DNA from: a virus
Taxonomy: Duplodnaviria; Heunggongvirae; Uroviricota; Caudoviricetes
Length of the DNA: 64,000 nt
Reading direction: 5' to 3' (one strand)
IMG/VR virus record: IMGVR_UViG_2901984674_000003
How positions within the stretch are numbered: the first letter of the stretch is position 1; each line of letters starts with the position of its first letter. The notes under the pieces are model-generated. The model was given only the letters and a program-made list of their open reading frames with translations. It had not been told where the DNA came from and made no database searches. This document shows, piece after piece, positions 15,967-64,000 of the stretch. A program made the position numbers and the translations under genes.

Positions 15967-16074
15967 TGTTAATTTCTCCCTTCATTCTAAGCTATAAAGC
16001 CATAAATGTACTGATTACTAAAACAACAAAGCCACCAGTAGCATTGACTACCAGTGGCAACGTAGAAGAAAACG

Positions 16075-47573: not shown

Positions 47574-47758
47574 GCTGGGTTGTTTATGAGTAATAAGAAG
47601 ATTTATTTCATCAAGGAGCTTTGTCATATCATTGCTTACCTAACGATTTTATTAATCATATTTCTAAGGTTGTTTGGAGCAATTGACGTAAGCTGGGACA
47701 AGATCCTTATTACAACAGTTATTATCTATATTTTGCAATAATTCAATGGAGGAATTTT

Positions 47759-48598: not shown

Positions 48599-48608
48599 TA
48601 AGAAGTAG

Positions 48609-49091
48609 GTGGTTTTATTGAAGTCAAAGTCATACTTTCAAACAATAGCTATCACAATTACTGGCATTTTAACCATTGCCATTATTGTAGGGGCTATTTT
48701 AGGGATTACACATAGGAATAATAAAAGTTCGTATCAAACAGTTGATACACCGATTAATTTAAGCATAAGTCAACTAAACAAGCATCAAGGTGAGGCTTAT
48801 CTAGTGTTAAGACGAACAGGTTGCAAGCATTGTGAACAAATGGAATCAACAATTGTGCCTAAGGTTAAACAACTAAGAAAACAAGGTAAGACAGTGTATG
48901 TTTTAGATTTAGCTAAAATGGATAAAAAACAATTATCATATATCGCTAAAAGTTTCCCTGTTTTACTAGTCGATCAAAACCGTATCAAAACACCAACTGT
49001 AGCTAAGATTAAGTCTTTAGGCAATCGTTGGTTAGTAGTTAAGTTCGATAACACTAACTCTAGGGCAAACATAAGCGAGGTGCTGAAATAA
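48609..49091 (+). CDS. Membrane-anchored thioredoxin-like protein (CxxC)
   Basis: N-terminal TM, and TGCKHCEQM inside a thioredoxin-fold-like context. Confidence 0.5.
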   Translation: MVLLKSKSYFQTIAITITGILTIAIIVGAILGITHRNNKSSYQTVDTPINLSISQLNKHQGEAYLVLRRTGCKHCEQMESTIVPKVKQLRKQGKTVYVLDLAKMDKKQLSYIAKSFPVLLVDQNRIKTPTVAKIKSLGNRWLVVKFDNTNSRANISEVLK

Positions 49092-49838
49092 ATGAATAGT
49101 ATCAACGTACCATGGATTTATTTATTGCCTTGGATAATGTTTGCTTTAATGTTAATCGCAAATATTAATTTAATGGTTTACACAAGCCCTAGTAGTGATG
49201 AAGCAGTAAACCTAGACGGTGGGCTTAAAGGACTTTTTCAAAAGGTTTTTACTAAAAAATCAAATAAAGTTAAGATCATTGCTGTTTATATAGCCATCAC
49301 ACTGGTTGAATTTATCCTTGTCTTTGGCTTGTGGTACTTCCTTAAATACAGTTTTCTTCATAAGATATTTGATTTTATAAACAAGGCAATTAACGCTGCA
49401 TTGAATGCTTTACCATTAACGGCTTTACTATCGTACGTAATGGTTCCGTTAATTATTTTATATATAATCTACATTACGCTAGGCATTAGAGCTTACCGTA
49501 AAAAGAAAGCTAGCTTTGAGGCTTGGAAAAAGAAACAAACAAAGCTTAAAGAAAAGCGAGCTAAGGAGCAATTACCAATGCCTAGTTTAACCATTAATGA
49601 TGTAAGTTCATTTTTGGCTTTCAAGCGAACTAAAGATTTAGTTGGAGCTAGGTATAAAGATGAAACATGGTTCCAATTATTTAATGAAGAACAATTGGCT
49701 AGGGTTAAAAAAGCTAGGCCTGACTTGCTTATCACAGTTGACAGATACCCTAGTATCTTGATGATAAACAAGGATAAGGCTGATGTTGTTTCACCAAGTC
49801 AAGCTATCAAAATCGTTAAGGGCGGTGGTGTAAAGTGA
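49092..49838 (+). CDS. Integral membrane protein
   Basis: 248-aa ORF with about 4 TM helices. Confidence 0.5.
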   Translation: MNSINVPWIYLLPWIMFALMLIANINLMVYTSPSSDEAVNLDGGLKGLFQKVFTKKSNKVKIIAVYIAITLVEFILVFGLWYFLKYSFLHKIFDFINKAINAALNALPLTALLSYVMVPLIILYIIYITLGIRAYRKKKASFEAWKKKQTKLKEKRAKEQLPMPSLTINDVSSFLAFKRTKDLVGARYKDETWFQLFNEEQLARVKKARPDLLITVDRYPSILMINKDKADVVSPSQAIKIVKGGGVK

Positions 49839-52669
49839 ATTTTGAATCAATTATTTGGTTTATCTTACATTATGTTTTGCCTTATGGTATCGCCTTTGCT
49901 GTGTTGTTTTGGTTGATTGAATTTAGCTTTAGAGCATGGATTAAAGCCAACATTGATATTGCTTGGGATAAGGTTATCACTGGCGCAATTATAGTTGGGT
50001 GCTTTGCTGGTCTTTGGGCTTTTTGGCATTGGACTTTACACCCTATACTATTGAAGCAACCAATTTGGGTTATGCTTGCAGCTAGGTTTCATACCTTTTG
50101 GGAATTATTCTTACAATCACCGTTTATGCAATCCATTCATCAAAAGTATGAACTAGTTTCGCACTGGATTAGCACTAAGATTGGTGATTATCGTTGGTAC
50201 TACTGGCAAGCGTTTGTTGTTACCTTCTTTTTTGGAGCGATTATCGACAGCATTGCCTTAGTTTGGAGAGTATCTTTCCCACGAACAGCTAACGTAGTTG
50301 TTCCAGCTTATCTAACATTCCCTAGAGTATTCTTATACCTAGTCGGTAGACAAACACCGATGGCAGACTTTATTCTAGCTGGTAAACTTAGAGCTAAAAT
50401 CAAAGAAAACCTAAACGACAGTTACGAAGCTGCGGTACAAGGTTATCAAGACAATGGACAACCGTTTAAAGATGGAGCAGGGGGAACTGCTGCTACACAA
50501 ACTAAAAAAGCTACGGCGGTAGCGATGAGAAGAACTAAGATTAAGATTAAAACTACCGCTAATGGAGTCAGAGAAGCACAAATCTTAATCAGACAGTCAA
50601 GAGAAACTGAAACCGACCGCTCAATTGAAAATGCCCTTAAAGGCTTAGGCGATCGTATTTCTGGCAACTCAATCTTCTTTCCATCAGACCCTACATACAA
50701 CTCTAAGTTAAAGGGTTATACCTTTAACTCTTCAGTTAGTTATGAAGCTGATGAACAACTAGGTGCATGGAAGGATATTTTTACTAATCCATTTAACCCT
50801 GACAATAGCACTAGTCAAGGTGGTAAAGGTTACTTAGTTTCATACTTTGAAAAAATTGGTTCGATCCTTAATTACATCGGTCATTTAACACCTTACGCTA
50901 TTTACAGACGTTTTATCAAATTGTCTGAATATAGATATGCGATTGATGAAAGTGCAGAAGTAGCTAACTTCAAGGTTCAACAAAATCTTGACCTAAGCGT
51001 AATTCCACCTGCTATTGATCCTAAAACTAAAAATGATGCAAAAACCCAACGTACAATTGCCATGCGTAAAGCCAAAGCTCGTATTCCAGATGTAACTATG
51101 GCTTTGAACGCTGTTAAGATCAACGGTCAATTCAAGAAGGTTGAAGTCGGCGGTAACAACGCTATTTACGAATATGTACTACCGCAAGACCCTAACTTGC
51201 CTGATAACTTTGATCGTATTCAAAAACAAATTGCTAACTACCTACGTATTAAAGCAACACCAATCGTTACTTTATCAGCAGGTATCTTAAAGCTTTCTAT
51301 TGATAATGGTGTAAACGTGCCAGCTTCATTTAGCGATATGATCCTAGCTCGCAAAAAGGGTGTATCAAACCTTATTTCAGGTATGTTAGGTGTTGATGAA
51401 TTAGGTAATCCTATCTACTTTGAACTAGGTGATAGCAACCCTCACGCTATCTTATTTGGTAAGACTGGTACAGGTAAGACAGTTACAATCATGACTATTG
51501 TTTATTCGGTTATGTCAGCTGTTGACCCTAGCCAAGTTAAGATGGTATTTATTGACGGTAAAGGTAACTCCTTTGAATTTATGCGCAACGATAAAGGACA
51601 CCCTAATCCATACGTTTATGCTCAACCTGCTGATGCGTCAGGGGATATTGAATATGCCAGAGCTTTAATCAAGCACCTTGAAAACGAAGTTAGAAGAAGA
51701 ATTGCTATCTTTAAAGAAAACTCAGTGCAAAAGTTGGCCGAATTTAATAAGAAATTCCCAGACCAAAAGATGCCTGAACTTTTAGTAATCGTTGACGAAT
51801 TTTCTGCAATCATGGATAAAGACAACGATCTAAAACCAACTGAAGTAAGCAAACTAGGAACAGCCGATAGGTTTGAATACTTAGCTAAGATGGCTCGTTC
51901 TACAGGTATACGTTTGTTATTCGCTAACCAAACAGCTCGTAAAGATAAGATTAGAGGTAACATTACCGCTAACATCACAGGTCGTGTATCGTTAGGACTT
52001 AGTGAAGCTATTGAATCTGACATTGCTTTGCCAGACACTGGTATCAAGGCTCACTTTATCTCACAACCTGGTGAGTTTTACTCTATCATGAACGGTGTTG
52101 CTAACTTTGAACACGGTAACTCACCATATCTTTCAGAAGATACCATGAACGCTTTGAACGACAGCTTAACCAAGAAGTTTGGTAGAAACGATTATGTAAT
52201 CAGTCGTGAAGAAGTTTTAGCAGAAATGGAAACTACGGTTTCTGACGGCGATGGTACCAACACTGACTATATAGATACAGAAGACGTTGCTATCCCAGAC
52301 CCTAAACCAACACCAGATTGGACTTTGGATAAGCTCAAAGCTTTAGATAAAAAGTACTGGTTCTACCTATACAATCACCGTGAAGAACTGATTGAAAATA
52401 ACACGAATAAAAAGGCACCTGAACTTCCTAAGCTTGACGACGAAAATAAAGATGGAGATCAAGGCAAGGCTGTTGGAAAATCAATTTTCCGTAAAAACCG
52501 TGAATCAAATTCACCTTACAATTCTTTCAAGAAGGAACTTGAAGAGTGGTATAAAGCTCAAAAAGACGCTGAAACCGTTGATTCTCATAGGTCTACTGGA
52601 AGTATTGTCGCAAGTTCAAGCGATAAGGTTAAAGATGTGACTGAAGGTAACGACAAGGGTCAACTCTAG
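49835..52669 (+). CDS. FtsK/SpoIIIE-family DNA-translocase-like ATPase with N-terminal TM helices; candidate conjugative coupling protein (TcpA-like)
   Basis: GTG start overlapping the previous stop. Walker A ILFGKTGTGKTVTIMT, Walker B LLVIVDEFSA and FANQTARK. Confidence 0.7.
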   Translation: MNFESIIWFILHYVLPYGIAFAVLFWLIEFSFRAWIKANIDIAWDKVITGAIIVGCFAGLWAFWHWTLHPILLKQPIWVMLAARFHTFWELFLQSPFMQSIHQKYELVSHWISTKIGDYRWYYWQAFVVTFFFGAIIDSIALVWRVSFPRTANVVVPAYLTFPRVFLYLVGRQTPMADFILAGKLRAKIKENLNDSYEAAVQGYQDNGQPFKDGAGGTAATQTKKATAVAMRRTKIKIKTTANGVREAQILIRQSRETETDRSIENALKGLGDRISGNSIFFPSDPTYNSKLKGYTFNSSVSYEADEQLGAWKDIFTNPFNPDNSTSQGGKGYLVSYFEKIGSILNYIGHLTPYAIYRRFIKLSEYRYAIDESAEVANFKVQQNLDLSVIPPAIDPKTKNDAKTQRTIAMRKAKARIPDVTMALNAVKINGQFKKVEVGGNNAIYEYVLPQDPNLPDNFDRIQKQIANYLRIKATPIVTLSAGILKLSIDNGVNVPASFSDMILARKKGVSNLISGMLGVDELGNPIYFELGDSNPHAILFGKTGTGKTVTIMTIVYSVMSAVDPSQVKMVFIDGKGNSFEFMRNDKGHPNPYVYAQPADASGDIEYARALIKHLENEVRRRIAIFKENSVQKLAEFNKKFPDQKMPELLVIVDEFSAIMDKDNDLKPTEVSKLGTADRFEYLAKMARSTGIRLLFANQTARKDKIRGNITANITGRVSLGLSEAIESDIALPDTGIKAHFISQPGEFYSIMNGVANFEHGNSPYLSEDTMNALNDSLTKKFGRNDYVISREEVLAEMETTVSDGDGTNTDYIDTEDVAIPDPKPTPDWTLDKLKALDKKYWFYLYNHREELIENNTNKKAPELPKLDDENKDGDQGKAVGKSIFRKNRESNSPYNSFKKELEEWYKAQKDAETVDSHRSTGSIVASSSDKVKDVTEGNDKGQL

Positions 52670-52721
52670 GTGTCAAATAGTCTTAATAAAAAAGTAAACA
52701 AAAATATTTGCTTTTATTTTG

Positions 52722-52760
52722 AAAGCCTTACAATCGTTGAATTGTAGGGCTTTTTCGATG
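52722..52760 (+). terminator. Rho-independent terminator
   Basis: GCCTTACAATcgttgaATTGTAGGGC followed by TTTTT. Confidence 0.6.
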
Positions 52761-52917
52761 CAACAAAAAATAAAGAAAACGTTTGAATAGGCTAATAATA
52801 ATTAATTTTTATTTGCTTTAGGCTTATTTTTTATTTACACTAATTGAGTAAAGAAAGAAATGCAATATGTGTTTCTTGCAAAAAATAAAATTAAGAGTTA
52901 AGGACAGGTAAAGATAT

Positions 52918-53634
52918 ATGACAAAACCAAATAAAGAAATTATTAAACTGTTTGAACGAGTAACAACCAAAGACCCTAGAATAACTGTAAAATATTTCAG
53001 TTCAATCTTTGGTTTTTTCAACTACTATTCAACCTCAGCTATGGGGACATTTTTAAGGCTTGCTAAAGACCCTGATGACGAAAGAACTTATGACGCTTTA
53101 GTTGACGCTTTGAAAATCCTTGATGAGTCCTTGATTGACTACAGCAATCTAACCATGCAAGATGTGGTTGACGCTTACGCTGAATACAACTTGTACAAGA
53201 AGAATATTTCTAGGTCACAATTATCTGTATTAGCAAACTTAAGTGACGGTAGTTTATCCAAGATTTTAAACAACAGTAATCCTAATGCTAAGCCTAACGC
53301 TTATGCAATTGATGTGTACGAAATGCTACGCTTAGACTTAATTCCTTCCTATAAGTTGGATTATAACTTTACCAATACACTTCAAAACTACCGTCAAATT
53401 CGCAACCTTATTTTCCGTGTTAGATTAGGCGATGGGTCTAACGCTTTATCTAACGCTGAACTAGCGAATAAATTGAACTTCGATGTAGATTTGTTTAATA
53501 ACCCTGAAAAGATTTGTAAGGACGCTCGTATCTACAATGAAATAGCTAATACGCTCTATAGATTGTTACCTAACTATTCGTTTGACTTCTCTAAGCGTAA
53601 AGACCAAGACACAACTTACATGGGGTTGATTTAA
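52918..53634 (+). CDS. Hypothetical protein with a possible HTH segment
   Basis: 238-aa ORF containing ISRSQLSVLANLSDGSLSKILNN. Confidence 0.45.
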   Translation: MTKPNKEIIKLFERVTTKDPRITVKYFSSIFGFFNYYSTSAMGTFLRLAKDPDDERTYDALVDALKILDESLIDYSNLTMQDVVDAYAEYNLYKKNISRSQLSVLANLSDGSLSKILNNSNPNAKPNAYAIDVYEMLRLDLIPSYKLDYNFTNTLQNYRQIRNLIFRVRLGDGSNALSNAELANKLNFDVDLFNNPEKICKDARIYNEIANTLYRLLPNYSFDFSKRKDQDTTYMGLI

Positions 53635-53635
53635 C

Positions 53636-54415
53636 ATGACTTTAATACAAAAACAATTTGAAGAATTACGTGAATTAGACCCTAGAATTAACGAAAAAAT
53701 GATTATTAAAAGCATTAATGTCGTAGACAGAAACAAGCAAAGTGTTATCAATTATTTAAACGGTACGATAGAGCCTTCGCCTGAGTTCTTAAGAGCTTGG
53801 AATAACATAATTTACCCAGGCTATAAAAAGAAGGTTGATAGCTACCCTAAAATAGGCGAACTTTACGCTTCAATTGACGATATATTAAAAGAAAAGGGTA
53901 GCCTTTATCAAAAGATTTTAAAACAAGCTCGTACATTTGATGTTGTGCTAGAGTTGGCGATGGAATTGCACGAAAAGGCTGATTACTACGATATGTACGA
54001 TATACTCAAGGGTAATCGTATCATGGGAAATATCTTAATTTACGCTAAATCTAAGTATATTTATAACGAGTTCCTAAAGCGTGATAAGATGATTAGCGAC
54101 ACCAATTTCTTAAAGATAATTGGCATGACAAACGACGCTAGTAAAGAGTTTCGTGACAACAATTACATTAGCGTAGATAAAGCTACACCTAACTTTGATG
54201 AATGCGTCGTCTTGGCTAGTAAAATAAACCATGTCAAACCAATTAGTGAAGATGAACTAAAAGAGTTTATACAAGGCATTGACAAAGATGTGCTTAAACA
54301 ATATGCCTCTAGTGTATTTAGACGTAAGGACTACTTTGACGTGTCGTTGAACAAAACGTTGCTAAAGAAGTATTACATGTTCTACTACGCTTATACGATT
54401 AGACAGAGTGCTTAG
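53636..54415 (+). CDS. Hypothetical protein
   Basis: 259-aa ORF, 2 nt after the previous gene. Confidence 0.45.
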   Translation: MTLIQKQFEELRELDPRINEKMIIKSINVVDRNKQSVINYLNGTIEPSPEFLRAWNNIIYPGYKKKVDSYPKIGELYASIDDILKEKGSLYQKILKQARTFDVVLELAMELHEKADYYDMYDILKGNRIMGNILIYAKSKYIYNEFLKRDKMISDTNFLKIIGMTNDASKEFRDNNYISVDKATPNFDECVVLASKINHVKPISEDELKEFIQGIDKDVLKQYASSVFRRKDYFDVSLNKTLLKKYYMFYYAYTIRQSA

Positions 54416-54552
54416 TCTATGATAGCATTAAAACAATGCTAGACATAAGGGCTAGTCGGTCGGCAGGCGACGGAAAAATCCTGTGATGATGACAAGAGTT
54501 AGGATTTATCCTAGCTCTTTTTTTATGCAAAAAGTTAAGTTAATAAAAATAG

Positions 54553-55566
54553 TTGAGTTATTTGCTGAAATTAGGGTATGCTAAGGGGTGTGGATCAAGG
54601 CTGGTTAACACTCAAGTACAACAATATAAGCAAAAACTTGATGAATATCAAAAAACACTTAATTCAGATCAGATAAATCCTGACTTAATTAGGCAAGAAT
54701 TAATACTTGGTAATGAAACAGACGCTAATATTAGCTATAAAGCATTGCGTAATGATATCAAAATAGGTTATGACAACAATAAAGATATGGCCGCTATGAA
54801 AGATTCAAAAACAAGTGTAACGGTAGACACTGATAATACAGGCAATCTAACTGGTAATATCATAGAAGTAACGTATTCTAATTTAAGTAAAAGCACTTAT
54901 AAAGGTAGGAAAATATCTAAAATTGTCGCAACATATAGTGATGCTATTAGAGGTAAACAAGCACCGTGGAACGTGCGATTACGTATAATGTCTAATCCTT
55001 TTGAAGGATTTTGGTATTGGCAAACTTTTGAGGTAAAAGTTGATTATAAATATTACGATGAGAACAACAATTTAATTAATTTTGACAATGATGATAGTGC
55101 TTGGATAACTGCTGGATCGCTAAATGCTGGTGGGATGAGACGAGAAGAAGTGACTCTAAACAGTAAAGGTAAAGTATATAGTTTTAGTGGATCTTCAGTT
55201 ACAATCCATGATGGAAATACACTATACTCAAACAAAGCAACCGATTTACCTAGTTATGGACACTCTTGGGAAGAACCAGATCATGATCCACAACCATATC
55301 CATGGGGAACTGAAGACTGGGATAAAGGTTTAGATGATCCACATGCTTATTTTGGAGCTGGAATTTTCAAAATAAATGGTTCTAATCTTAATACTACATA
55401 TCGCACAACTAGAGCTAATAATCTACCTGAAAATTATCCTGTTTGGGGGACATGGGCAACCATATCAACAACTATCCCTAAGTCAAACAGTGGTATCGTA
55501 CCACCGACAGTTCACTATCATCATACGAACGTTGCTTTGCTGTTGCACCAACTAAAAAAGTGCTAA
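54553..55566 (+). pseudogene. 5'-truncated fragment of an adhesin gene (antigen I/II-like V-region paralogue) ending in the conserved ...HYHHTNVAL junction motif
   Basis: It has no plausible ATG or RBS (the track starts at TTG). It is paralogous to residues about 400-625 of the 57764 adhesin (YKGRKISKIV..., ...GAGIFKINGSNL..., ...TVHYHHTNVAL). Confidence 0.5.
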
Positions 55567-55589
55567 AGCACACTTTTTTAAAAACTAGG

Positions 55590-56525
55590 TTAATTCTCTA
55601 GTTCTTTAAGATGTTTTAGCACTTTGTTATTATCCTTGTTTTCAAGCTCTTGTATGATATGCAGATAGGTTTTTTGTGTAGTTAGGGTGCTTGCATGACC
55701 CAGCCTCTTAGACACGCTTAAAATTGACACTCCGCTAAACAGCAATAGGGACGCATGAGTATGCCTTAGTCCATGAATTGTAATAGGGGAGATACCAGCT
55801 CGTTTGCATAGCGTGTTTAAACGACTGTTGATTGTTGAGTTAAATATCTTTTGGTTGTCTTTAACGAAGATTGGAGCGTTTGGATCAAGTCCTTTTAACA
55901 GTCTTTTAAAGTTTTTCAACAGGCTTGGATCAACGATAACTTTGCGGTTGGAACTTTCGTTTTTAGTAGGTTGAAAGCCACCACCAAACTTGTAGTTCCA
56001 AGATTTGTTGACAACTATTTGCTTACCTTTAAAATCAAAGTCGTTTGGAGTTAAAGCCAAAGCTTCAGCAAACCTTAACCCAGTCTTGCTAATTAGATAA
56101 ACAAACCAGTCCCAGTTAACTTGGTCTTTGGGTAAGTCCAACTGTTGCATTAAAGCTTTAAGCTCAAACAAGTCCAAAAACTTTTTCTTTTTATCGACCT
56201 TAGGCTTACCTTTAATGATAGCTTTTCTCGTAGGGTCTTGTTTGATTAAACCATCTTCATAGGCATCGACAAAAGCTGCTTTTAAGTGATGATGAAAGTC
56301 CATTGTAGTTTCTCTAACATGATCTTTAGCATATTCGTTCAACAACAGTTGGTATCTCTTTCTATTCAACTCATTCATATGAAGGTTAGGGCATAGTCGT
56401 TTAAGATGCTGGTATGCAAGTTCATACTTAAGGTAAGTAGAGTGTCGTACCGCACCTTTCTTATACAATTCAATCCATTCCTTGTAATATTTATGTACTA
56501 ATTTTTTACTTACTCTTTGTGTCAT
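55590..56525 (-). CDS. int: Tyrosine site-specific recombinase (phage integrase family)
   Basis: C-terminal catalytic region RFAEALAL...HGLRHTHASLL...LGHASTLTTQKTYLH (R, HxxR and Y). Confidence 0.85.
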   Translation of the reverse strand: MTQRVSKKLVHKYYKEWIELYKKGAVRHSTYLKYELAYQHLKRLCPNLHMNELNRKRYQLLLNEYAKDHVRETTMDFHHHLKAAFVDAYEDGLIKQDPTRKAIIKGKPKVDKKKKFLDLFELKALMQQLDLPKDQVNWDWFVYLISKTGLRFAEALALTPNDFDFKGKQIVVNKSWNYKFGGGFQPTKNESSNRKVIVDPSLLKNFKRLLKGLDPNAPIFVKDNQKIFNSTINSRLNTLCKRAGISPITIHGLRHTHASLLLFSGVSILSVSKRLGHASTLTTQKTYLHIIQELENKDNNKVLKHLKELEN

Positions 56526-56679
56526 TTTTTTATTCCTTTCTATAATTATAATTTATGTTTTAACATAGATTTAACTTATCATTTAAGCCGAAAATCAAGG
56601 CTAATTTCAAGTATTATTTTACCAAAAGTGACTCGTAATAAAATTCAAAATACGATTATATCAAGGTTTACTCAAGCTA

Positions 56680-57598
56680 TTAATGTTGCAAAGCAACGTT
56701 CGTATGATGATAGTTGAGTGTTGGTGGGGTTGGTGGAGTACTTTTAATAGGTAATGGAATACCACCTAGATTCTGATGATAGAAGCCCATAAAACCTGAA
56801 CCATCAGGAGCATCGTTTCCCCAAGCTGGGTCAGCGGCACTGAATACATATGAAACAGTGCTTGAGTTAGGTACTAAGAACCATGATTGATACTGCGTAT
56901 TCTTGCCCTCAGAGAAGTCATCAACGTTATTTGTGTTAATAGATCCAAGATAACCATTTCCACTATAATCTTTATTTTCAGAACCACGTAATGCGCTAAC
57001 AGCATTATAAACTGCAACTGATTGGTGAGCATCAACGTCACCTACACCAATTAGACTAGTTATATTAATTGGTGTATTAGTACCATGTTCTAAGAATGTA
57101 AGTCCATATCTAACAGCACCAATTCCAGCTACGTCAGAACCGATATACTTCTCTCCAACCATAATCATTGGAGGTAGACCATATCTTCCACTGTAATCTA
57201 GTCCTAATCCTTGTACAGTAACTTTAAGATCAATGCTTTTGCCTGATTTAGTATCGGTAAAGGCATTATTATATTTCCAAGTTGTTCCTTGTGCCAGTTT
57301 ATATATATCACCAAAAGCCTTAGATGAAATATAACCCTTTAATCCTGGATCTACCTTAGGATTAGATAGAATTGAGTTTAATTCACTTTGGCTAAAACTT
57401 TGTAAAGTTCCTTTATCAAAAGTCATATTACTTCCAGCGCTAACATAAGAAACATTAGGTAGATTTTGTCCTAAGAAATCTAAAACTTGTTTAACAGACC
57501 AGCCTGTTTTAGCTGCAGCCGCTTCTAAGAATTGTTGGTTATCCTTTTCCCACTTAGCATAAGAATCTTTGTATTGTTGTACTTGAACGTAAATCGCT
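56680..57598 (-). pseudogene. 5'-truncated adhesin fragment on the opposite strand (a paralogue of the N-terminal and V-region of the 57764 adhesin), ending ...LNYHHTNVALQH
   Basis: The frame is open from the stop at about 57598-57600. The first Met is at 57426, and no start or RBS is present. ...VQQYKDSYAKWEKDNQQF... parallels ...VQQYKKDLDNYNQKL... in the intact gene. Confidence 0.5.
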
Positions 57599-57763
57599 TT
57601 CTAAAACTAGCTAAAATCATTAATCCAAAGACTAAAAATAACGATATTTCAAGCTAAAATTTAAAATATTTTCGTAAACAAAGAATTATATTTTGCAACA
57701 CTTCGATAAACCTTTAATGTATCATGTAAATATAACCATTAACTATTATAAGGAGGAATTTAG

Positions 57764-60700
57764 ATGGTTTCAAAAAACAATATGATGCTGTTGGAAAACA
57801 AGCAGAACCGTAAGAATATGCGTTACGGTATTCGCAAGTTTTCTTCTGGTACCGCTAGTGTATTGTTAGGCTTTACTGTTGCTGGAACAGTGATGATGAT
57901 GGCTAATCATAAAGAAGCAAGTGCTGATACTGTAGGCACCCAAAGTAATACAAATAGCATTTCTTCAACAACGCAAAATGCTTCAGTACCAATTCAATCT
58001 CCAAAGAGCCAAGACGTACAAAATGCTGTTAACAACGCTGTAAATCAAGGGGTACAAGTTACTCAAAACAACAGCCAAACAATTGTTGCTCATAATACAA
58101 CAGAAGTACAACAAGCTCAACAACAAGTTAGCCAAGCTAACCAACAACAAGCTGATAGAATTAACGGTGTAGCTCAACAACAAAAGCAACTAAACGATCA
58201 GTATGCTAAAGATAAGGCTGAATATGATACTTGGCAAGCTAATACTAAAGATGCTACAACAGTAAACAAGCAAAATTCAGACAAATTGCAAGCTGCAGTT
58301 CAAGCTGCAAAAGCTGCTGGAGTTCAAGTTACTCAAAATCAAACACAAACTTTAACAGCTACAAACTCTACTTATAATAGCGTTAAACAAGACGTTAATA
58401 ATAAGTACAACCAACAAGTTTCTAGTTTGAATAGCATTACAGATGCACAAAAAGACCTTAATAACAGGTATAATAGTGCAAAAGCTGATGCACAAAATCT
58501 TAACTCAGATAGTAACGCAACTCGTAATTCACTTGATTCAGCTATAAGGAATGCCCAATCAACTAATGGGGTAAAACTTATAGATGATGGTACACGCAAT
58601 GTTACTGTTGATGTAAATAATTACGCTGCTAAAAAAGCTGAAATTGAGCGTGATAACAAGCAACAAGCAGATAGTATTAATTCTCAAGTACAACAATACA
58701 AAAAGGATTTAGACAACTATAATCAAAAACTCAATCAAGCTGGTAAAAATGTAGTCGATTCACGCTCATTAATTCAAAAATTAACAATTGAGAGTGAACC
58801 TAATGCTAAGTTAACTATCACTAATGCAAATAACATTAATGTTAATCCAATTGAAAATCTAAAGTTTAATTTACTTGATAATATGGGTAATGGATACGGT
58901 ATCGGTATAAAAGATAGCAGTAAAGTAGCAAGTTTCGATGCAACTTTTACTAATTTAAGTAGATTATCTTATAAAGGCAAAAAGATTAGCAAAGTCATCA
59001 TGCACTTTTCTGGTACTGGTGAAAATTGGGGAATGAACTTAGCAAATAACTTATACTATGGTTTTCATTCTTGGAACGGAGCTAAAAATATTAGATTTGA
59101 ATGGTTCTATGAAGATGGAACTAAAGTGAATTTCGAGAATGGTACGGCATATTTAACTGTTGCTTCATTAAATACCTATCTTCAAAGGAATCAATGGGGG
59201 CATGAACGCACTACCGTTATTTCGGGTGGAAAGGCATTAGCCTTATATGGATCATCTGTATCACTTCATAATGGCAATGAATTGTATTCGTCTAAAGCTA
59301 ATAGTATTGATACAAGCGGCAGAGCCAGAGCAACAGATGGTGCAGATTCTAAACCAGACCAAAAATTAATTGATAACTTTTTCCCTAACCAAAAAGATAT
59401 TACTAATACCAATATTCCTTATAAGTGGGATACCGCCAATTCTCCAGATCGTTATTATGGAGCTGGATTAATAGCTTTAAATGGTAGTGATTTAACGATT
59501 AAAGTTGACGTTAAAAATGATGATAGACCTAATGGTACAGAACCTTGGAACGCTCAATGGGCTAACTTTGGAACAATCATTCCAGAGACTCCTAATATTA
59601 ACAGACCAGAGCTAACAGTTCACTATCATCATACGAACGTTGCTTTGCAACCACCAACTCCGCTTAAAGCTAACTTTACGGAGTACCAAATTAAGGCAAC
59701 AGGGACTGGCGATGAGATTAATACTCCACCACAACCAACACACTTATCTACTTCCTATACCAACTACAACATTGTCTATCAAGCAACTTCTGATAAGAAT
59801 TGGAAGGAAGGTAGCCAAACTGTAAATGGTAAGTTGGAAATTAACGATGATGTAGCTCATGCCAAGGTTGATATGACGGTTCCAAGTCCATCAACTGTAG
59901 ACGGTAAATTGACTCATGTTTCATTAACTGATAACTATAGTAGATTTGCTAAGTTTGTAACTGTAACAGGAGCTAACGTTTATGAAAACGAACGTAATGC
60001 GACAGCTGATTACAATATCACTAACGCAAATAACGTTGTTACAGCTACACGTAAAAACCCAGCTACAGTCAATGGTGGTACTGTATCGTTGGTAGTTGAC
60101 TTTAAGGTTAACCCTGATGTACCTTCAGGAACTAAGTTGGTTAACTCAGGTTCAGGTACAATCAATACTCAAACTGTACCAACACCTGATGCACAAATCG
60201 TAACCTTTACTCAAAAGCCAACTAAGCATTGGATTGAAGGTAGTCAAGTAGTTGATGGCAAGACTTATATCAACGATGATATTGTCACAACTAAGGTTGA
60301 TATGGACTTACCTGATCCTAAGCAATTAGCTAAGACTTTATCTTACGTTTCAGTTACTGATGATTATCGTGACTTTAAAGACAAAGCTGTTTTACAGTCT
60401 TACAAAGTTCTTGAAAATGGTACTGATGTAACATCTCAATATACGGTTACAAACAACGCTGGTTTACTCCAAGCTGTACGTAAGAATGCAGCTACTACTC
60501 CAGCTGGTAAGGTTTCCTTGATTGCTACGTTTGCTGTTAACCATGATGTTAAGTCTGGCACAACCTTCACAAACCGTGGTTCTGGTCGTATCAACAACCA
60601 TACAGTTGATACAAACACTCCACAAATTGTTACATTTAAGCAAGATACAAGCAAACACTGGGTTGAAGGTAGCCAAGTAGTTGATGACAAGACATATATC

Positions 60701-63700
60701 AACGAAGACATGGTACACGGTCAAGTAACCATGACTCTACCTAATAGAGATAGTTTAGCTAAAGCTTTAACAGACGTTACTTTAGTTGATGATTACAGTG
60801 ATTATGCAAACAAAGTATCTTACGTAAATGCACAAGTATTTGAAAACGGTACTGACGTAACAAGTCAATACACTATTACAAATGCTGGTAACAAGATTAC
60901 AGCTACACGTAAGAACCCAGGTGATACTCCTTCTGGTAGTGTTCGCTTAGTTGCTAACTTTAAGTTAAATAACAACTTGCCTTCTGGTACTAAGTTAATT
61001 AACCGTGGTTCTGGTCGTATCAACAACAATACGGTTAATACAAATGAAGCTAAGATCCTAACTTATGTTCAATCTACGGATAAACACTGGGTTGAAGGCT
61101 CACAAACAGTTGATGGTAAGACTTACATTGCTAATGATGTAGTTCACGGTCAAGTAAGTATGACTTTACCTGATCCTAAAACTTTAGCTACACCATTGAA
61201 GAATATAACTGTTGTTGATGACTACCGTAACTTCATGAATAAGGTTGATTATCAATCAGCACAAGTTCTGGAAAATGGTGAAGATGTAACAAGTCAATAC
61301 ACTATTACTAATGCTAACGGTCAAGTTACTGCAACACGTAAGAATGCCAGTGCAGCTCCAGCAGGTAAAGTTCAATTAAACGTAAACTGGCGCATTCATA
61401 ATGATGTTGCAAGTGGTACAACTTTAGTAAATGCAGGTTCTGGACGCATTAACGATCATACCGTACCAACTCCTAACCGTAACATTGTTACTTATAAGCA
61501 AGATGGGTTAAAGGATTGGATTAACGCTCAAGGTCAAATCGTTAACGGTAAGACTTATATTGATAATGATACAGTTCACGCTAAGTTAGTTATGACTTTA
61601 CCTGATCCAAAAGCTTTAGCTACACCATTAACTAAAGTTCAATTGGACGACAATTATTCTAAGTTCGCAGGCTTAGTTGATTATGTAAGTTCACAAGTGC
61701 TTGAAAACGGTACTGATGTAACAAGTCAATATACTATTACTAACGCTAACGGTCATGTAATTGCAACTCGTAAAGATGCAAGTAAGACTCCAGGCGGAAA
61801 CGTTGAGTTTAGAGTAAACTTCAAGATTCATACTGATGTGCCTTCTGGTACAACTCTAATGAACTCTGGTGAAGTAACGTTGAACTCTGAAACAGTTCCA
61901 ACACCAACTCCAAACATTGTTACTTACAAGCCTGATACAGATAAGCATTGGGTAGAAGGTAGCCAAGTGGTTGACGGTAAGACATACATTGCTAATGATG
62001 TTGTTAACGGTCAAGTAACCATGACATTACCTGAACCAAGCAAGTTAGCTGAAAAACTAAAACGTGTAGTTGTTACTGACGATTTCTCCAAGTTCGCTGA
62101 CAAGGTAGATTACAAGTCTGCTAAAGTACTTGAAAATGGTACTGATGTAACAGCTCAATACGATATTAAGGTAGCTAACGGCAAAGTTATCGCAACTCGT
62201 AAGGACGCTTCTACAACACCTGCTGGTAAGGTTGTCTTACAAGCATTCTGGAAAGTTCATAACGACATTGAAAGTAACACTCAACTTGTTAACTCAGGTT
62301 CAGGTCAAATCAATGATGAAGTTGTTCCAACTCCTGATCGTACAATTGTTACTTACAAACAAGATACTGAAAAGCACTGGAGAGATGATGGCGGACAAAT
62401 CGTTGATGGCAAGATTGCAATCAATGATGACATTGTTACAGCTAGAGTTGATATGACTTTACCTAAGGGAGAAAACTTAGCTAAACCATTAGATAAGATT
62501 CAATTGGTTGATGATTTCTCCAAGTTTGCTGACAAGGTTACACTACAAGCCGTACATGTTTACGAAAACGGTAAAGATGTTACAGACCAATATGATATTC
62601 ATGTTGAAAATGGTAGAGTTGTAGCTACACGCAAGGACGCAAGCAAGGTTTACGACCATACAGGTGCTGCTAACGCTACAATGAAGGCTACTTTAAAGGC
62701 TAATGAAGCTCTAAACGTTAACGACTTAGTACACACAGCTAGTGCTAACGTTAACGATAGTAAAGTATCAACTGTAAACAGACTTGCATTTAACCGTTTG
62801 TTTGCTAAATCATTCATTACAAGCAACATTGCTGTAACAAGTGATAACAATATCAAGAGCCAAATTGATATGGCTGTTCCAACAAACGTAGATGCTAAGA
62901 CACCTATGACTGTAACAAGCGATTACTCTAATTTTGCTAAATACGTAAATGTTAAGGACGCTACAGTCTACGAAAATGGTAAGAATGTAACAGCTGACTA
63001 CACTATCAAAGATGATAAAGCAGGTCATGTAACTGCTATTAAGAAAGACGGTAGTGAATCTGACGGTGGCCAAGTATCGTTAGTTGTTGATTACGAAGTA
63101 AACCACGATATTCCAAATGGTACAATCCTTGAAAACCACGGTTCTGGTACATTGAACGGACAAGATGTACCAACAAATACACCAAGTATCACAACTTACA
63201 ACCAAGATACAAGCAAACACTGGGTTGAAGGCGATCAAAACGTTGATGGTAAGATCTACGTTAACGGTTCAACAGCTCATGCACAAGTAAGCATGACTCT
63301 ACCTGATCAATCCAAGTTAATCAATAAGCTTTCAAACGTAAGCATTGACGATGATTACTCCAAGTTTGCTAAATTAGTAGATTACAAGTCTGCTAAAGTG
63401 CTTGAGAACGGTAAAGATGTAACGTCTGAATACACAATCAAGAACGCTAACGGTCATGTTACAGCTGTACGTAAAGATGCAAGCAAGACCCCAGCAGGTA
63501 ACGTTCAACTTCTAGTTGACTTTGAAATTCACAAAGATGTTAAGTCTGGTACAGAGCTTGTCAATGGTGGTTCTGGTACACTTAATAAGAACACTGTACC
63601 AACAAATACACCTTCAATCTGGACTTACACTCCTGATGGTGAAAAGCACTGGGTATTAGATGGTAACGTTACAGATAGCAAGATTTACTTCTCTGGCGAC

Positions 63701-64000
63701 AAAGCAGTTGCTCAAGTTTCTGTTGATTTACCTGATACAAGCAAACTTGCCACTCCATTAAGCAAGTTAGTCTTAGTTGATAACTACTCTGATTTTGCTG
63801 ATAAAGTTAAGTTAGATAGTGCTAAGGTGCTTGAAAATGGAAAGGACGTAACGTCTGAATACGACTTGACTAATAAAGATGGTAAGGTAATTGCTACTCG
63901 TAAAGATGCAACTAAAACACCTTCTGGTAAGGCTGTTTTAGTAACAACATTTACTATCAACAATGGTATTGAAAATGCGACAGCATTACACAACAAGGGT
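57764..64000 (+). CDS. Large cell-surface adhesin (partial, more than 2078 aa, running off the window) with a YSIRK-type signal peptide, an Ala/Gln-rich coiled region, a lectin-like domain, the HYHHTNVAL-PPTP junction and at least 14 tandem ~133-aa Ig-like repeats
   Basis: ATG 57764 after an AGGAGG RBS. Signal RYGIRKFSSGTASVLLG. Repeat unit ...TYKQDTSKHWVEGSQVVDGKTYI.NDDVVHGQVTMTLPD...LA.PL..V.VTDDYS.FA.KVDY.SAKVLENGTDVTSQYTITNANG.VTATRKDAS.TPAG.V.L...F.IH.DV.SGT.L.N.GSG.IN...VPTP. No stop before position 64000 on manual translation. It is absent from the ORF track because it has no stop in the window. Confidence 0.8.
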   Translation, partial: MVSKNNMMLLENKQNRKNMRYGIRKFSSGTASVLLGFTVAGTVMMMANHKEASADTVGTQSNTNSISSTTQNASVPIQSPKSQDVQNAVNNAVNQGVQVTQNNSQTIVAHNTTEVQQAQQQVSQANQQQADRINGVAQQQKQLNDQYAKDKAEYDTWQANTKDATTVNKQNSDKLQAAVQAAKAAGVQVTQNQTQTLTATNSTYNSVKQDVNNKYNQQVSSLNSITDAQKDLNNRYNSAKADAQNLNSDSNATRNSLDSAIRNAQSTNGVKLIDDGTRNVTVDVNNYAAKKAEIERDNKQQADSINSQVQQYKKDLDNYNQKLNQAGKNVVDSRSLIQKLTIESEPNAKLTITNANNINVNPIENLKFNLLDNMGNGYGIGIKDSSKVASFDATFTNLSRLSYKGKKISKVIMHFSGTGENWGMNLANNLYYGFHSWNGAKNIRFEWFYEDGTKVNFENGTAYLTVASLNTYLQRNQWGHERTTVISGGKALALYGSSVSLHNGNELYSSKANSIDTSGRARATDGADSKPDQKLIDNFFPNQKDITNTNIPYKWDTANSPDRYYGAGLIALNGSDLTIKVDVKNDDRPNGTEPWNAQWANFGTIIPETPNINRPELTVHYHHTNVALQPPTPLKANFTEYQIKATGTGDEINTPPQPTHLSTSYTNYNIVYQATSDKNWKEGSQTVNGKLEINDDVAHAKVDMTVPSPSTVDGKLTHVSLTDNYSRFAKFVTVTGANVYENERNATADYNITNANNVVTATRKNPATVNGGTVSLVVDFKVNPDVPSGTKLVNSGSGTINTQTVPTPDAQIVTFTQKPTKHWIEGSQVVDGKTYINDDIVTTKVDMDLPDPKQLAKTLSYVSVTDDYRDFKDKAVLQSYKVLENGTDVTSQYTVTNNAGLLQAVRKNAATTPAGKVSLIATFAVNHDVKSGTTFTNRGSGRINNHTVDTNTPQIVTFKQDTSKHWVEGSQVVDDKTYINEDMVHGQVTMTLPNRDSLAKALTDVTLVDDYSDYANKVSYVNAQVFENGTDVTSQYTITNAGNKITATRKNPGDTPSGSVRLVANFKLNNNLPSGTKLINRGSGRINNNTVNTNEAKILTYVQSTDKHWVEGSQTVDGKTYIANDVVHGQVSMTLPDPKTLATPLKNITVVDDYRNFMNKVDYQSAQVLENGEDVTSQYTITNANGQVTATRKNASAAPAGKVQLNVNWRIHNDVASGTTLVNAGSGRINDHTVPTPNRNIVTYKQDGLKDWINAQGQIVNGKTYIDNDTVHAKLVMTLPDPKALATPLTKVQLDDNYSKFAGLVDYVSSQVLENGTDVTSQYTITNANGHVIATRKDASKTPGGNVEFRVNFKIHTDVPSGTTLMNSGEVTLNSETVPTPTPNIVTYKPDTDKHWVEGSQVVDGKTYIANDVVNGQVTMTLPEPSKLAEKLKRVVVTDDFSKFADKVDYKSAKVLENGTDVTAQYDIKVANGKVIATRKDASTTPAGKVVLQAFWKVHNDIESNTQLVNSGSGQINDEVVPTPDRTIVTYKQDTEKHWRDDGGQIVDGKIAINDDIVTARVDMTLPKGENLAKPLDKIQLVDDFSKFADKVTLQAVHVYENGKDVTDQYDIHVENGRVVATRKDASKVYDHTGAANATMKATLKANEALNVNDLVHTASANVNDSKVSTVNRLAFNRLFAKSFITSNIAVTSDNNIKSQIDMAVPTNVDAKTPMTVTSDYSNFAKYVNVKDATVYENGKNVTADYTIKDDKAGHVTAIKKDGSESDGGQVSLVVDYEVNHDIPNGTILENHGSGTLNGQDVPTNTPSITTYNQDTSKHWVEGDQNVDGKIYVNGSTAHAQVSMTLPDQSKLINKLSNVSIDDDYSKFAKLVDYKSAKVLENGKDVTSEYTIKNANGHVTAVRKDASKTPAGNVQLLVDFEIHKDVKSGTELVNGGSGTLNKNTVPTNTPSIWTYTPDGEKHWVLDGNVTDSKIYFSGDKAVAQVSVDLPDTSKLATPLSKLVLVDNYSDFADKVKLDSAKVLENGKDVTSEYDLTNKDGKVIATRKDATKTPSGKAVLVTTFTINNGIENATALHNKG

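Follow-up and report, generated by a model that had tools for sequence, protein, structure and literature searches.

The window, i.e. the whole stretch of 64,000 nucleotides analysed here, belongs to a Ligilactobacillus salivarius plasmid and, with a probability that we put at about 0.8, carries a multi-inversion shufflon acting on a plasmid-borne adhesin of the AgI/II-GbpC type, whose lectin-like tip (V) domain it exchanges. Three properties expected of a shufflon are met: segments bounded by short inverted repeats adjoin a site-specific recombinase gene; natural arrangements differ by inversion exactly at these repeats (draft genomes L116 to L119 vs. the window, and strain UCC118 vs. B4311); and the reading frame is kept such that alternative proteins are encoded (42 of 42 cassettes, and the L116 product). 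From left to right, the locus consists of a silent head (head0) between sites that we denote A and B, the integrase gene on the minus strand, a second silent head (head2) in the inverted order B-head2-A, a promoter and YSIRK N-terminal module, and a third head (head1), between A and B, that continues into the adhesin body (Table 1).

Table 1 Features of the adhesin locus in the window, in order of position.
Feature	Position	Strand	Remarks
Terminator-like hairpin	54494..54519	+	11-pair stem followed by a T run; consensus match only
A site, copy 1	54611..54629	+	CTCAAGTACAACAATATAA, codes for QVQQYK; 5' boundary of head0
Silent head0, type T7	54630..55506	+	GbpC/AgI-II V-domain type; GbpC E 1.1e-17
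B site, copy 1	55507..55540	+	34 nt identical to copy 3; codes for TVHYHHTNVAL
Tyrosine recombinase, presumed invertase	55590..56525	-	311 aa; between inverted B sites
B site, copy 2 (inverted)	56685..56722	-	Swap breakpoint in L116/L117
Silent head2, type T0	56723..57567	-	Very divergent; Pfam match absent
A site, copy 2 (inverted)	57568..57586	-	Exact 19-nt inverted repeat with copy 3
Expression module	57587..58683	+	Promoter region, YSIRK signal peptide, Adhesin_P1_N (A-region-like) repeats; lies between inverted A sites
A site, copy 3	58684..58702	+	Inside expressed gene (…INSQVQQYK…)
Head1, type T4	58703..59613	+	GbpC type; currently in expression slot
B site, copy 3	59614..59651	+	Inside expressed gene (…TVHYHHTNVALQP…)
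Constant adhesin body	59652..64000	+	Tandem ~429-nt repeats (AgI_II_C2 / Antigen_C type domains); extends past window end

Two classes of sites, each present in three copies and in both orientations, bound the heads, always in the order A-head-B; no such copy would be expected by chance. The A site, TCAAGTACAACAATACAAA, codes for QVQQYK and is the 5' bound of every adhesin head cassette; the B site, which ends in …CATCATACGAACGTTGCTTTGC and codes for HYHHTNVAL, is the 3' bound, and all three of its copies lie at the ...HYHHTNVAL junction that closes a head domain. Exact copies of the 34-mer ACAGTTCACTATCATCATACGAACGTTGCTTTGC are located at 55507-55540(+) and 59615-59648(+), with a third, inverted copy at 56688-56721 that has 3 mismatches, and the 29-mer CTATCATCATACGAACGTTGCTTTGCAAC occurs exactly at 59623-59651(+) and 56685-56713(-); the chance expectation for these matches, derived from dinucleotide-preserving shuffles, was 0.00. 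Both repeats had been recognized in the initial annotation, but at positions 1-9 nt off (55516-55549 and 59616-59649 for the 34-mer, and 56687-56715 for the inverted 29-mer), and the A class at the 5' edges of the heads had been overlooked. The remainder of the description given there is accurate: the inverted and the first direct copy bracket the integrase gene, all three copies coincide with a head-domain boundary, two heads, oppositely oriented, are promoterless and 5'-truncated (54553-55566(+) and 56680-~57600(-)), the remaining head is inside the YSIRK adhesin, and identity at the sites is much higher than in the flanking coding DNA, the three heads being only 54-56% identical outside the sites in global nucleotide alignments. 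The reading frame through B site copy 1 stops at 55566, and that of head2 ends at B site copy 2 with ...NYHHTNVALQH* (stop at 56680). Similarity of the upstream flank to strain ZSA5 (99.9%) and to L118 ends at A site copy 1. The synonymous codon positions of the B core CAYACRAACGTTGCTTTG do not vary from cassette to cassette, at an identity of about 54% elsewhere in the cassettes. We count this as support for selection on this core at the DNA level, with the caveat that some conservation would in any case be expected of sites placed in conserved peptide motifs. The A and B sites are unlike each other, and neither a shared binding motif nor clear dyad symmetry could be demonstrated for them.

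The three heads, each about 0.85-0.92 kb long, are lectin domains of the AgI/II V-region/GbpC type, with type T0 only remotely related: the head-cassette profile matches the solved AgI/II V-regions 1jmm (3.8e-26) and 3iox as well as GbpC (5uqz, 7.4e-20), and head2, for which the Pfam domain search gave no match, retains remote similarity to GbpC-type heads (hhalign 92.6%, E 4.6e-7). Head0 has no promoter, ribosome-binding site (RBS) or signal peptide, its frame is open from A to B, and the hairpin just upstream should insulate it from upstream transcription. An uninterrupted, in-frame reading from A to B was found in each of the 42 cassettes examined (25 unique sequences), whether silent or not. 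Among the 34 cassettes that were typed, representing 9 head types, one and the same type can be found next to differing sequences on the left (A-side) as well as on the right (B-side), which we count in favor of putative independent reassortment at both A and B sites.

The expression module contains an RBS (AAGGAGG, 57750-57756) followed by an ATG at 57764, where the YSIRK adhesin gene starts that includes head1 and extends past the window end; the promoter itself could not be located with confidence within 57587..58683. The architecture of the target gene (YSIRK_signal, Adhesin_P1_N repeats, GbpC, and AgI_II_C2/Antigen_C) is that of the AgI/II-GbpC-PrgB proteins, the AgI_II_C2 and Antigen_C Pfam domains having been found on the L116 and L117 products. 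The C-terminus of the adhesin lies outside the window, such that an LPXTG anchor is not visible there; the body of the sister locus (family II) in UCC118 ends with an LPQMGETN-like anchor region.

The recombinase contains a full catalytic domain (Phage_integrase PF00589, E 1.1e-22, profile positions 1-168 of 172) and an N-terminal SAM-like core-binding domain (Phage_int_SAM_5, 1.9e-7; 3lys N-domain, 2.2e-19), and matches the solved integrases 3nkh and 6emy. The catalytic residues R151 (TGLR), H251 and R254 (HGLRH; H251-x-x-R254), H277 (LGHAS) and Y287 (KTYLH) were read at the motif level, without structural alignment. All four inspected out-of-species relatives (54-60% identity), from L. ultunensis, L. 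intestinalis, Listeria innocua and Aerococcus tenax, are encoded between hsdS genes in inverted orientation, i.e. in hsdS invertons, which is consistent with the recombinase-driven interpretation of the initial annotation; in Mycoplasmopsis cynos, the position of a relative with 53% identity overlaps with a gene annotated as hsdS, and the family II integrase has an 82%-identical, hsdS-linked relative within L. salivarius (S39). Recombinases of this kind adjoin all three families of the adhesin locus, the integrases being 54-71% identical to one another. In the window, the genes that flank the integrase are adhesin heads, not hsdS, and no homologues of hsdS or hsdM were detected in the 64 kb when three hsdS proteins and an hsdM protein served as tblastn queries; thus, no substrate other than the adhesin locus is evident there. 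The recombinase appears to have been borrowed from the world of hsdS invertons and, given that adhesin-linked and hsdS-linked integrases are not cleanly separated by pairwise identity, was possibly recruited from restriction-modification invertons more than once. That the integrase catalyzes the inversions is inferred from its position and kinship only.

The alternative arrangements anticipated by the initial annotation are found in related strains, in draft assemblies including GCA_002289965.1 and GCA_002289605.1. In L116 and L117, which encode an integrase protein identical to that of the window and match the window at 99.9-100%, head1 and head2 are exactly exchanged: identity to the window is 99.97% as far as the B site (56722), and there follow window segment 59651-58684 inverted (100%), 57568-58702 collinear (100%), 57586-56685 inverted (100%), and 59614-64000 (99.93%). 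Adjoining segments have the A site (19 nt) or the B site (38 nt) in common, the breakpoints thus falling inside the repeats, and the expression module is collinear and 100% identical although both flanking heads are exchanged. Judging from these alignments, the arrangement is what would be expected from a single A×A inversion combined with a single B×B inversion; the L116 product, of more than 2663 aa, bears the other head. In L118, head2 occupies slot 0; in L119, head1 adjoins the integrase, inverted in the silent slot as in L116 and L117; and a metagenome contig has a head1-type cassette (84% identical) in slot 0. At least three arrangements are therefore present among genomes with an identical integrase protein, and the same skeleton with differing in-frame cassettes recurs across many strains. 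Two irregularities were observed: ZSA5 oddly has an identical head in two slots, and the type-strain assembly breaks at B sites.

In family II, UCC118 (pMP118) and B4311 differ by a single A×A inversion of a 2.2-kb segment: B4311 has a full-length adhesin gene, whereas UCC118 has a signal peptide, stalk, head and stop plus a promoterless head with body, such that the signal-peptide module and the anchored body have come to lie apart through this inversion. The complete plasmids of UCC118, CECT 5713, B4311 and BNS11 also differ by site-bounded inversions. Several sequenced strains have a split, apparently non-functional state, or an integrase interrupted or replaced by an IS element. The direct-repeat copies in head0 and the expressed gene would permit a 4.1-kb deletion that removes the integrase, and some family II strains have no N-terminal module; therefore, the system is not strictly inversion-only.

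The sole promoter, RBS, YSIRK signal peptide and A-repeat stalk reside in one module (57587-58683), and the constant body (59652 onward) supplies the repeat domains. Under the proposed mechanism, the recombinase (55590-56525) would join A with A and B with B. An A×A inversion (57568/58684) would flip the expression module to read into head2, and the product would be a secreted, unanchored head because the head2 frame ends two codons after the B site. A B×B inversion (56685/59614) would flip the block head2-module-head1; as this alone would misdirect the module, a functional new adhesin would require the QVQQYK class and a second inversion. Together, the two inversions would restore the skeleton with head1 and head2 exchanged, yielding a full-length anchored adhesin with head2. 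Thus, the recombinase-driven head shuffling suggested by the initial annotation is supported by the exact swaps in L116 and L117, but the HYHHTNVAL site alone, to which that suggestion was confined, would be insufficient because inverting 56716-59615 joins head2 to the body and turns the promoter and signal module away. The A and B sites of head0 would bring the third head into play, with one such inversion flipping the integrase gene. Single-inversion intermediates are predicted to encode an unanchored protein of N-terminal module plus head, as seen in UCC118.

All of this evidence is between strains, without read-level data, and does not cover heterogeneity within a culture, such that frequent switching remains an inference. 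Evolutionary mosaicism only, i.e. historical or very rare events instead of a programmed, frequent phase or antigenic switch, would also be compatible with the many strains that look locked or degenerate and with draft contigs of 42-87 kb that each span the locus, suggestive of one dominant arrangement per culture. We nevertheless consider this explanation rather unlikely: identity reaches 100% across some 3 kb of exchanged sequence, between flanks of 99.93-99.97%, indicating swaps that are very recent relative to point mutation, and neither the multiple arrangements that accompany one integrase protein nor the intact frames of the silent cassettes (42/42) are readily accounted for. Unlikely, too, is RecA-dependent recombination or gene conversion at short conserved motifs, with the integrase a bystander from an hsdS inverton or mobile element. 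The location of the sites in conserved peptide motifs (QVQQYK and HYHHTNVAL), the lack of an experiment linking the integrase to the events, and the several strains that retain the locus with the integrase interrupted or lost would all fit. However, at only 17-19 nt, the A repeat is short in view of the minimal homology known for efficient RecA-dependent exchange; synonymous positions in the site cores are fixed across ~54% identical cassettes; a recombinase of the hsdS-inverton kind lies beside all three locus families despite the divergence of the integrases; and the exchanges are reciprocal swaps, not conversions.

The direct 34-nt repeats at 55507 and 59615, which bracket a 4.1-kb integrase-containing block, could be taken for att remnants of a mobile cassette inserted at HYHHTNVAL, with the truncated heads as debris, a possibility raised in the initial annotation. 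This appears very improbable, given that a second site class bounds the other side of every head, the supposed debris is intact, in frame and of differing types by strain in the same skeleton, the variants are inversions and swaps rather than presence or absence of a block, and the inspected integrase relatives are in hsdS invertons, not in integrative elements. Assembly artefacts, namely misjoins at short repeats, are hardly conceivable: the comparators with swapped heads are drafts, and the irregularities in ZSA5 and the type strain could be so explained, but the same swap was recovered from two independent assemblies and, in part, from another one, complete plasmids also differ by site-bounded inversions, and misjoins are not expected at repeats of 19-38 nt, which are shorter than sequencing reads.

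A multi-inversion shufflon at this locus would add a new target class, the lectin domain at the tip of a Gram-positive wall adhesin of the AgI/II/GbpC type, to gene-altering programmed inversions, with two site classes allowing in-frame exchange of a middle domain, as for hsdS target-recognition domains. The reading of L. salivarius genomes would change accordingly: the 'hypothetical proteins' and split adhesin of the reference strain UCC118 would then represent one switch state, not simple decay. Some L. salivarius strains serve as probiotics; phenotypes such as adhesion and aggregation, and possibly also plasmid transfer, may vary within a strain. The at least 9 V-domains on a common scaffold are a natural library for ligand studies, and short in-frame recombination sites (6-9 codons) could serve engineered domain shuffling. 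In families II and III, the locus lies beside conjugation and surface-exclusion genes, and SEC10/PgrA neighbours the adhesin as prgA does prgB in pCF10 (PMC7726212). We only tentatively entertain, as a possibility that is itself doubtful, that the adhesin is the L. salivarius megaplasmid mating (aggregation) adhesin and the shufflon a Gram-positive counterpart of the IncI1 PilV shufflon. If so, rotation of V-domains with differing polymer or glycan specificity, differences that are inferred, would vary the recipient cells or host surfaces bound, and toggling between anchored adhesin and released head would likewise vary binding by the plasmid carrier; an involvement in mating specificity is merely hypothetical.

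The window adhesin shares its domain set with AgI/II adhesins (SpaP, SspB), GbpC and the enterococcal PrgB polymer-adhesin-domain proteins. In the literature, we found no member of this AgI/II-GbpC-PrgB group described with its V or polymer-adhesin domain exchanged by DNA inversion and no prior description of such an LPXTG-type adhesin-tip shufflon, and Lactobacill-, GbpC, LPXTG and isopeptide are all absent from a systematic survey of gene-altering programmed inversions. The inspected out-of-species relatives of the integrase reside in hsdS invertons ('epigenetic invertons', e.g. SpnIII/cod of S. pneumoniae, with PsrA/CreX), where, as in the window, promoterless partial copies accompany one expressed gene, with the recombinase gene among them. 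More than one class of inverted repeats and in-frame exchange of an internal specificity domain have been reported for these systems, along with the invertase clades PsrA/CreX, TvrR, BfiA, EfiA and HvsR (PMC7672463). The hsdS loci that we inspected have a short and a long repeat class. The window locus differs in its site sequences and in its target, a cell-surface adhesin instead of a methylase specificity subunit, such that the output is a changed surface ligand-binding domain, not a changed methylome.

The IncI1/R64 shufflon (Rci, sfx, PilV tip adhesin) is likewise plasmid-borne and employs one tyrosine recombinase and several short inverted repeats, multiple inversions selecting an alternative adhesin segment fused in frame to a constant part. 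In R64, however, the C-terminal end of the pilin is swapped using one site class, whereas the window locus needs two because the exchanged domain lies in the middle, with a constant module N-terminal to it and a constant body C-terminal to it. The host is Gram-positive, and the protein is an AgI/II-type adhesin inferred to be anchored covalently. The resemblance to R64 is one of function only. In the vsa (HvsR), vsp and vpma (Xer1) systems of Mycoplasma, a single expression site holds the promoter and the signal-peptide-coding 5' end, the silent genes lack that 5' end, site-specific recombination takes place at a short site inside the coding region, and a tyrosine recombinase is adjacent; by analogy, that site may correspond in role to the A site of the window. 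The Mycoplasma systems exchange the whole remainder of the gene, whereas the second in-frame site of the window locus keeps the wall-anchored body and swaps the tip only.

The direct and inverted repeats that the initial annotation had placed around a tyrosine recombinase gene are real, as are the genes described next to them (truncated heads, the recombinase and a YSIRK adhesin), but the coordinates given for the repeats were 1-9 nt off. No matches to the 34-mer or the 29-mer are expected by chance (0.00 from shuffles). A repeat search identified a second class of sites, overlooked in that annotation, at the opposite edge of each head, such that every head cassette starts at an A site (coding for QVQQYK) and ends at a B site (HYHHTNVAL). 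The order in the window is upstream flank, A-head0-B, integrase on the minus strand, B-head2-A (inverted), expression module, A-head1-B, and body, i.e. two site classes in a fixed order around each cassette. A motif search established none that the A and B sites have in common. All three site-to-site head lengths are multiples of three; the heads themselves are only 54-56% identical to one another in global nucleotide alignments and are essentially unrelated. The expression module comprises the promoter region, RBS, signal peptide and stalk; a strong RBS is present in this module only, a terminator-like hairpin precedes head0, and the silent cassettes are intact and lack expression signals. 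A promoter scan showed no excess of sites over shuffles, and no convincing adhesin promoter could be picked. The recombinase has a full Phage_integrase domain and a SAM-like N-domain, with the catalytic motifs R151, H251-x-x-R254, H277 and Y287.

Coordinates of the repeats, genes and cassettes in the window and in the comparison loci (L handles)
Feature	Record	Coordinates	Strand	Remarks
34-mer	window	55507-55540	+	exact
34-mer	window	59615-59648	+	exact
34-mer, inverted copy	window	56688-56721		3 mismatches
29-mer	window	59623-59651	+	exact
29-mer	window	56685-56713	-	exact
A site	window	57568-57586		exact 19-nt inverted repeat with 58684-58702
A site	window	58684-58702		exact 19-nt inverted repeat with 57568-57586
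A site, third copy	window	54611-54629	+	
head0, GbpC-type, 5'-truncated	window	54553-55566	+	ends …TVHYHHTNVALLLHQLKKC*
Tyrosine recombinase, 311 aa	window	55590-56525	-	
head2, second truncated head	window	ends 56680	-	C-terminus …NYHHTNVALQH*
Expression module	window	57587-58683		
Adhesin gene	window	57764 to window end	+	YSIRK signal, Adhesin_P1_N repeats; reads …TVHYHHTNVALQPPTP… at 59615, then 429-nt repeats until window end
LysM protein, two small ORFs, 944-aa FtsK/SpoIIIE ATPase	window	47759-52669		upstream of locus
IS605-family OrfB/TnpB (Cas12f1-like TNB domain)	window	429-1655	+	
IS605-family OrfB/TnpB (Cas12f1-like TNB domain)	window	19770-20933	+	
IS605-family OrfB/TnpB (Cas12f1-like TNB domain)	window	34545-36026	+	
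T6 head, 840 nt, silent slot	L001 (ZSA5)	8359-9198	-	100% identical to expression-slot copy
T6 head, 840 nt, expression slot	L001 (ZSA5)	10334-11173	+	100% identical to silent-slot copy
Upstream flank through B site	L116/L117	1-9133		window 47590-56722, collinear, 99.97%
head1, here in silent slot	L116/L117	9096-10063		window 59651-58684, inverted, 100%
Expression module	L116/L117	10045-11179		window 57568-58702, collinear, 100%
head2, here in expression slot	L116/L117	11161-12062		window 57586-56685, inverted, 100%
Body	L116/L117	12025-16411		window 59614-64000, collinear, 99.93%
103-nt spacer, family II	L002	10956-11058		
103-nt spacer, family II	L009, L010, L011	10849-10951		
103-nt spacer, family II	L005	8851-8953		
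IS element at integrase position	L120 (IBB3154)	14007-16260		
IS element at integrase position	L121 (ZLS006)	13026-14929		

The window carries RepA_N, ParA and Alp7A-like genes and is therefore plasmid DNA; matches to the locus were found in plasmids of Ligilactobacillus salivarius only. In the nearest complete record, the ZSA5 plasmid (NZ_CP123973.1), the skeleton is the same and the flanks are 94-99.9% identical to the window, all head cassettes are of a different type, and similarity stops exactly at the A and B sites. ZSA5 carries the same T6 head in the silent slot and in the expression slot; either a genuine duplication or conversion event or the assembly of a mixed population could account for this. 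The upstream order of LysM, small ORFs and FtsK is kept in ZSA5 and in the draft-genome loci L116-L119; these genes may belong to a module for transfer or secretion.

A lookup in public assemblies showed that the exact integrase protein of the window is encoded in four draft genomes. Comparison of related strains, which the initial annotation had proposed, indeed revealed alternative arrangements (L116-L119 were oriented like the window before alignment). In L116 (GCA_002289965.1) and L117 (GCA_002289605.1), neighbouring aligned segments share at their ends either the 19-nt A site or the 38-nt B site, and thus head1 and head2 are exactly exchanged within an unchanged skeleton; this arrangement is the product expected of one A×A and one B×B inversion. 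Gene predictions for L116 are consistent with this, as the silent slot holds a 257-aa GbpC fragment. Slot contents differ in the other two loci as well: head2 occupies slot 0 in L118 (GCA_015070845.1), and head1 adjoins the integrase in L119. A metagenome scan with the integrase yielded 80 loci, among which one was of the window type (L012) and three of family II (the pMP118 type), the rest having no A or B site. In L012, a more distant contig with a 94% identical integrase, slot 0 is taken by a head1-type cassette (84% identical).

Typing of 34 cassettes, drawn from 15 sequences (the window, plasmid records, metagenome contigs and a type-strain scaffold), gave nine head types when grouped at >=75% nucleotide identity. 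For every type, several contexts were seen on the left (A side) and on the right (B side), with independent reassortment of the two: T0 was found in the left/right contexts P'/I2, N/Int, S1/Int, S2/Int and S1/P, T2 always with S2 on the left and with P, Int or Body on the right, and T3 in N/Body, S1/Body and S1/P. T5 and T0 are common to families I (the window type) and II. With L116-L119 included, the reading frame is open and unbroken between the first A base and the last B base in 42 of 42 cassettes (25 unique sequences). Across 23 unique contexts, the B core CAYACRAACGTTGCTTTG is invariant but for two transitions, and this constancy extends to the third positions of the Asn, Val, Ala and Leu codons, which points to selection acting on the DNA as well as on the peptide. 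Among 185,579 species-representative genomes, the B core is meaningfully present in L. salivarius only, the 16 other occurrences being single chance matches. In the type-strain draft of L. salivarius (DSM 20555), the 1,926-bp scaffold41 has inverted B sites at both ends (layout B-head-A-spacer-A-head-B); that the assembly stops at both of them is what one would expect of a mixed or repeated junction.

The exchanged unit can be identified from its homologs. Of the nine head types, eight match Pfam GbpC, and the head profile matches solved AgI/II V-regions (1jmm, 3.8e-26; 3iox) and GbpC (5uqz). Only the head profile retrieved the V-regions; a phmmer search of PDB with the residues around head1 and the body gave no match. 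The T0 head has no Pfam match, which is why the long YSIRK/Adhesin_P1_N/AgI_II_C2 product of L116 shows no GbpC hit. Since the AlphaFold model of T0, built from a six-sequence alignment, was too poor for a fold search (mean pLDDT 44.8), we resorted to profile-profile comparison, which linked T0 to the other heads with 92.6% probability (E 4.6e-7 over 85 columns). What is exchanged is therefore the entire lectin (V or polymer-adhesin) domain at the tip, with the A site where the A-repeat stalk ends and the B site right behind a short proline-rich stretch. A biological role of the locus in host-surface binding, aggregation or mating specificity is, at this stage, a hypothesis.

The initial annotation had offered two readings: shuffling of the adhesin head driven by the recombinase, or att-site remnants of an integrase cassette that targets the shared motif. 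The latter can be rejected because the same skeleton with differing in-frame cassettes recurs across strains; the former is supported, and extended, by the site-bounded swaps between strains. We put the probability that the locus is a recombinase-driven shufflon at about 0.8; site-bounded head exchange, taken as a bare fact, is more secure than this, and frequent programmed switching is less so. The natural variants differ by A×A and B×B exchanges, and we infer that the adjacent integrase carries these out, pairing only like site with like, so that every product would stay in frame. An A×A flip of the module would then give a secreted protein of module and head2 ending …VALQH*, leaving the body silent, and a B×B flip of the 2.9-kb block would give module, head1 and a stop; combined, the two flips would yield an anchored adhesin carrying head2. 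Exchanges via the sites of head0 would invert the integrase block and bring head0 within reach, and the direct site copies would also allow deletions. That switching is frequent is likewise an inference.

Family II, the integrase of which is ~71% identical to that of the window, has the A site CAGATACAACAATACAA and an unchanged B core. It resides on pMP118-type megaplasmids, where it is preceded by genes for a relaxase, Fic, an HTH regulator and a SEC10/PgrA surface-exclusion protein and by a small ORF; an ArdC-like gene lies 3' of the adhesin, immediately in two plasmids and beyond intervening genes in two more. UCC118 has the signal-peptide and stalk module joined to a T0-type head with a stop beside the integrase, and its 740-aa anchored body has a head but no start, promoter or signal peptide; in B4311 and BNS11, module, head and body form a full-length gene. 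Alignment of UCC118 with B4311 showed opposite orientations of the 2.2 kb between the inverted A sites, the breakpoints falling at these sites; the two thus differ by the single-inversion step. Five family II loci (AR809, A17, CICC 23174, ZLp4b and LT604075) have no module. In the first four (L005-L007 and L010) it is absent plasmid-wide, and thus the annotated adhesin begins right after the A site; these are probably deletion products between direct A sites, and LT604075 looks like the product of a deletion between direct site copies. Each of the same four loci has two heads, and their bodies measure 1626-3027 aa. In family II, a 103-nt AT-rich spacer between inverted A sites takes the place of the window's 1.1-kb expression module; the spacer of B4311 is oriented opposite to that of BNS11, ZLp4b and AR809. 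IS elements (ISL3; IS200/IS605 with TnpB) take the integrase position in the IBB3154 and ZLS006 loci, both of which are in the split state of module, head and stop; such an insertion would lock that state.

In family III (JCM1046 pLMP1046, S32, S92 and L122-L124, the first three being L092-L094), the adhesin-linked integrase is only 54% identical, the B-like site codes for HYHHTNVEL, a further junction site, TATCACTTGGATTCAG (YHLDS), is present, and the adhesin has two alternative bodies. A 5-kb segment comprising the N-terminal module, a head and repA lies beside one of these bodies in JCM1046 and beside the other in S32. Elsewhere 99.9% identical, S32 and S92 differ over a 2.1-2.4-kb head region by the integrase, and the difference there is not a simple inversion. 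In L122, a single ORF fuses a GbpC head to the integrase. The SEC10/PgrA gene accompanies families II and III, whereas tblastn found no PgrA homologue in the window.

Relatives of the recombinase at 54-60% identity in the plasmid collection come from L. ultunensis, L. intestinalis, Listeria innocua and Aerococcus tenax, and all four are flanked by inverted hsdS genes that belong to type I R-M systems; among Mycoplasma relatives (50-53% identity), one overlaps an hsdS annotation. Inverted hsdS loci with tyrosine invertases are known as 'epigenetic invertons' (PMC7672463). An hsdS-linked integrase is also found in L. salivarius S39, and the family II enzyme is closer to this copy (82-83% identity; L003 14004-14930 vs L002 6918-7847) than to family I (71%). 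Judged by pairwise identities alone, this hints that the target may have changed more than once or that one enzyme may serve both kinds of loci. Nine near-clonal 213-kb plasmids from badger isolates were considered as a test of switching and set aside because their integrase (70% identity) adjoins hsdS, not an adhesin. Searches of the window by tblastn with hsdS and hsdM proteins found no homologue, leaving the adhesin locus as the sole evident substrate there. The outgroup hsdS invertons have the short inverted repeats TTGGGAGCAACGTAAGTT and AGCTTGGGAACAGCGTAAG (L113 5778-5795 / 8484-8501; L114 5729-5747 / 9086-9104), and GCAACGT occurs both in these and in the reverse-complemented B site (CAAAGCAACGTTCG); this may be a common recombinase core or chance.

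Full-text literature searches returned no description of the system, and an earlier mention in older L. salivarius papers is not excluded. Nothing relevant was found in the literature on L. salivarius plasmids and inversions, and nothing comparable in that on inversion systems in LPXTG adhesins. The text of a systematic survey of gene-altering inversions nowhere contains Lactobacill-, GbpC, LPXTG or isopeptide, an intragenic-inverton study does not mention the system, and a review of polymer-adhesin domains mentions neither recombinases nor inversion.

As we read it, the locus works like a shufflon. The hsdS invertons are closest to it in logic and by the relatives of the enzyme, the R64 PilV shufflon resembles it as a plasmid-borne adhesin switch, and the vsa/vsp/vpma systems of Mycoplasma share with it a single expression site that contains the signal peptide. 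All of these differ from the present locus in their target, and it alone among them encloses the exchanged domain between two constant parts, an N-terminal module and an anchored body.
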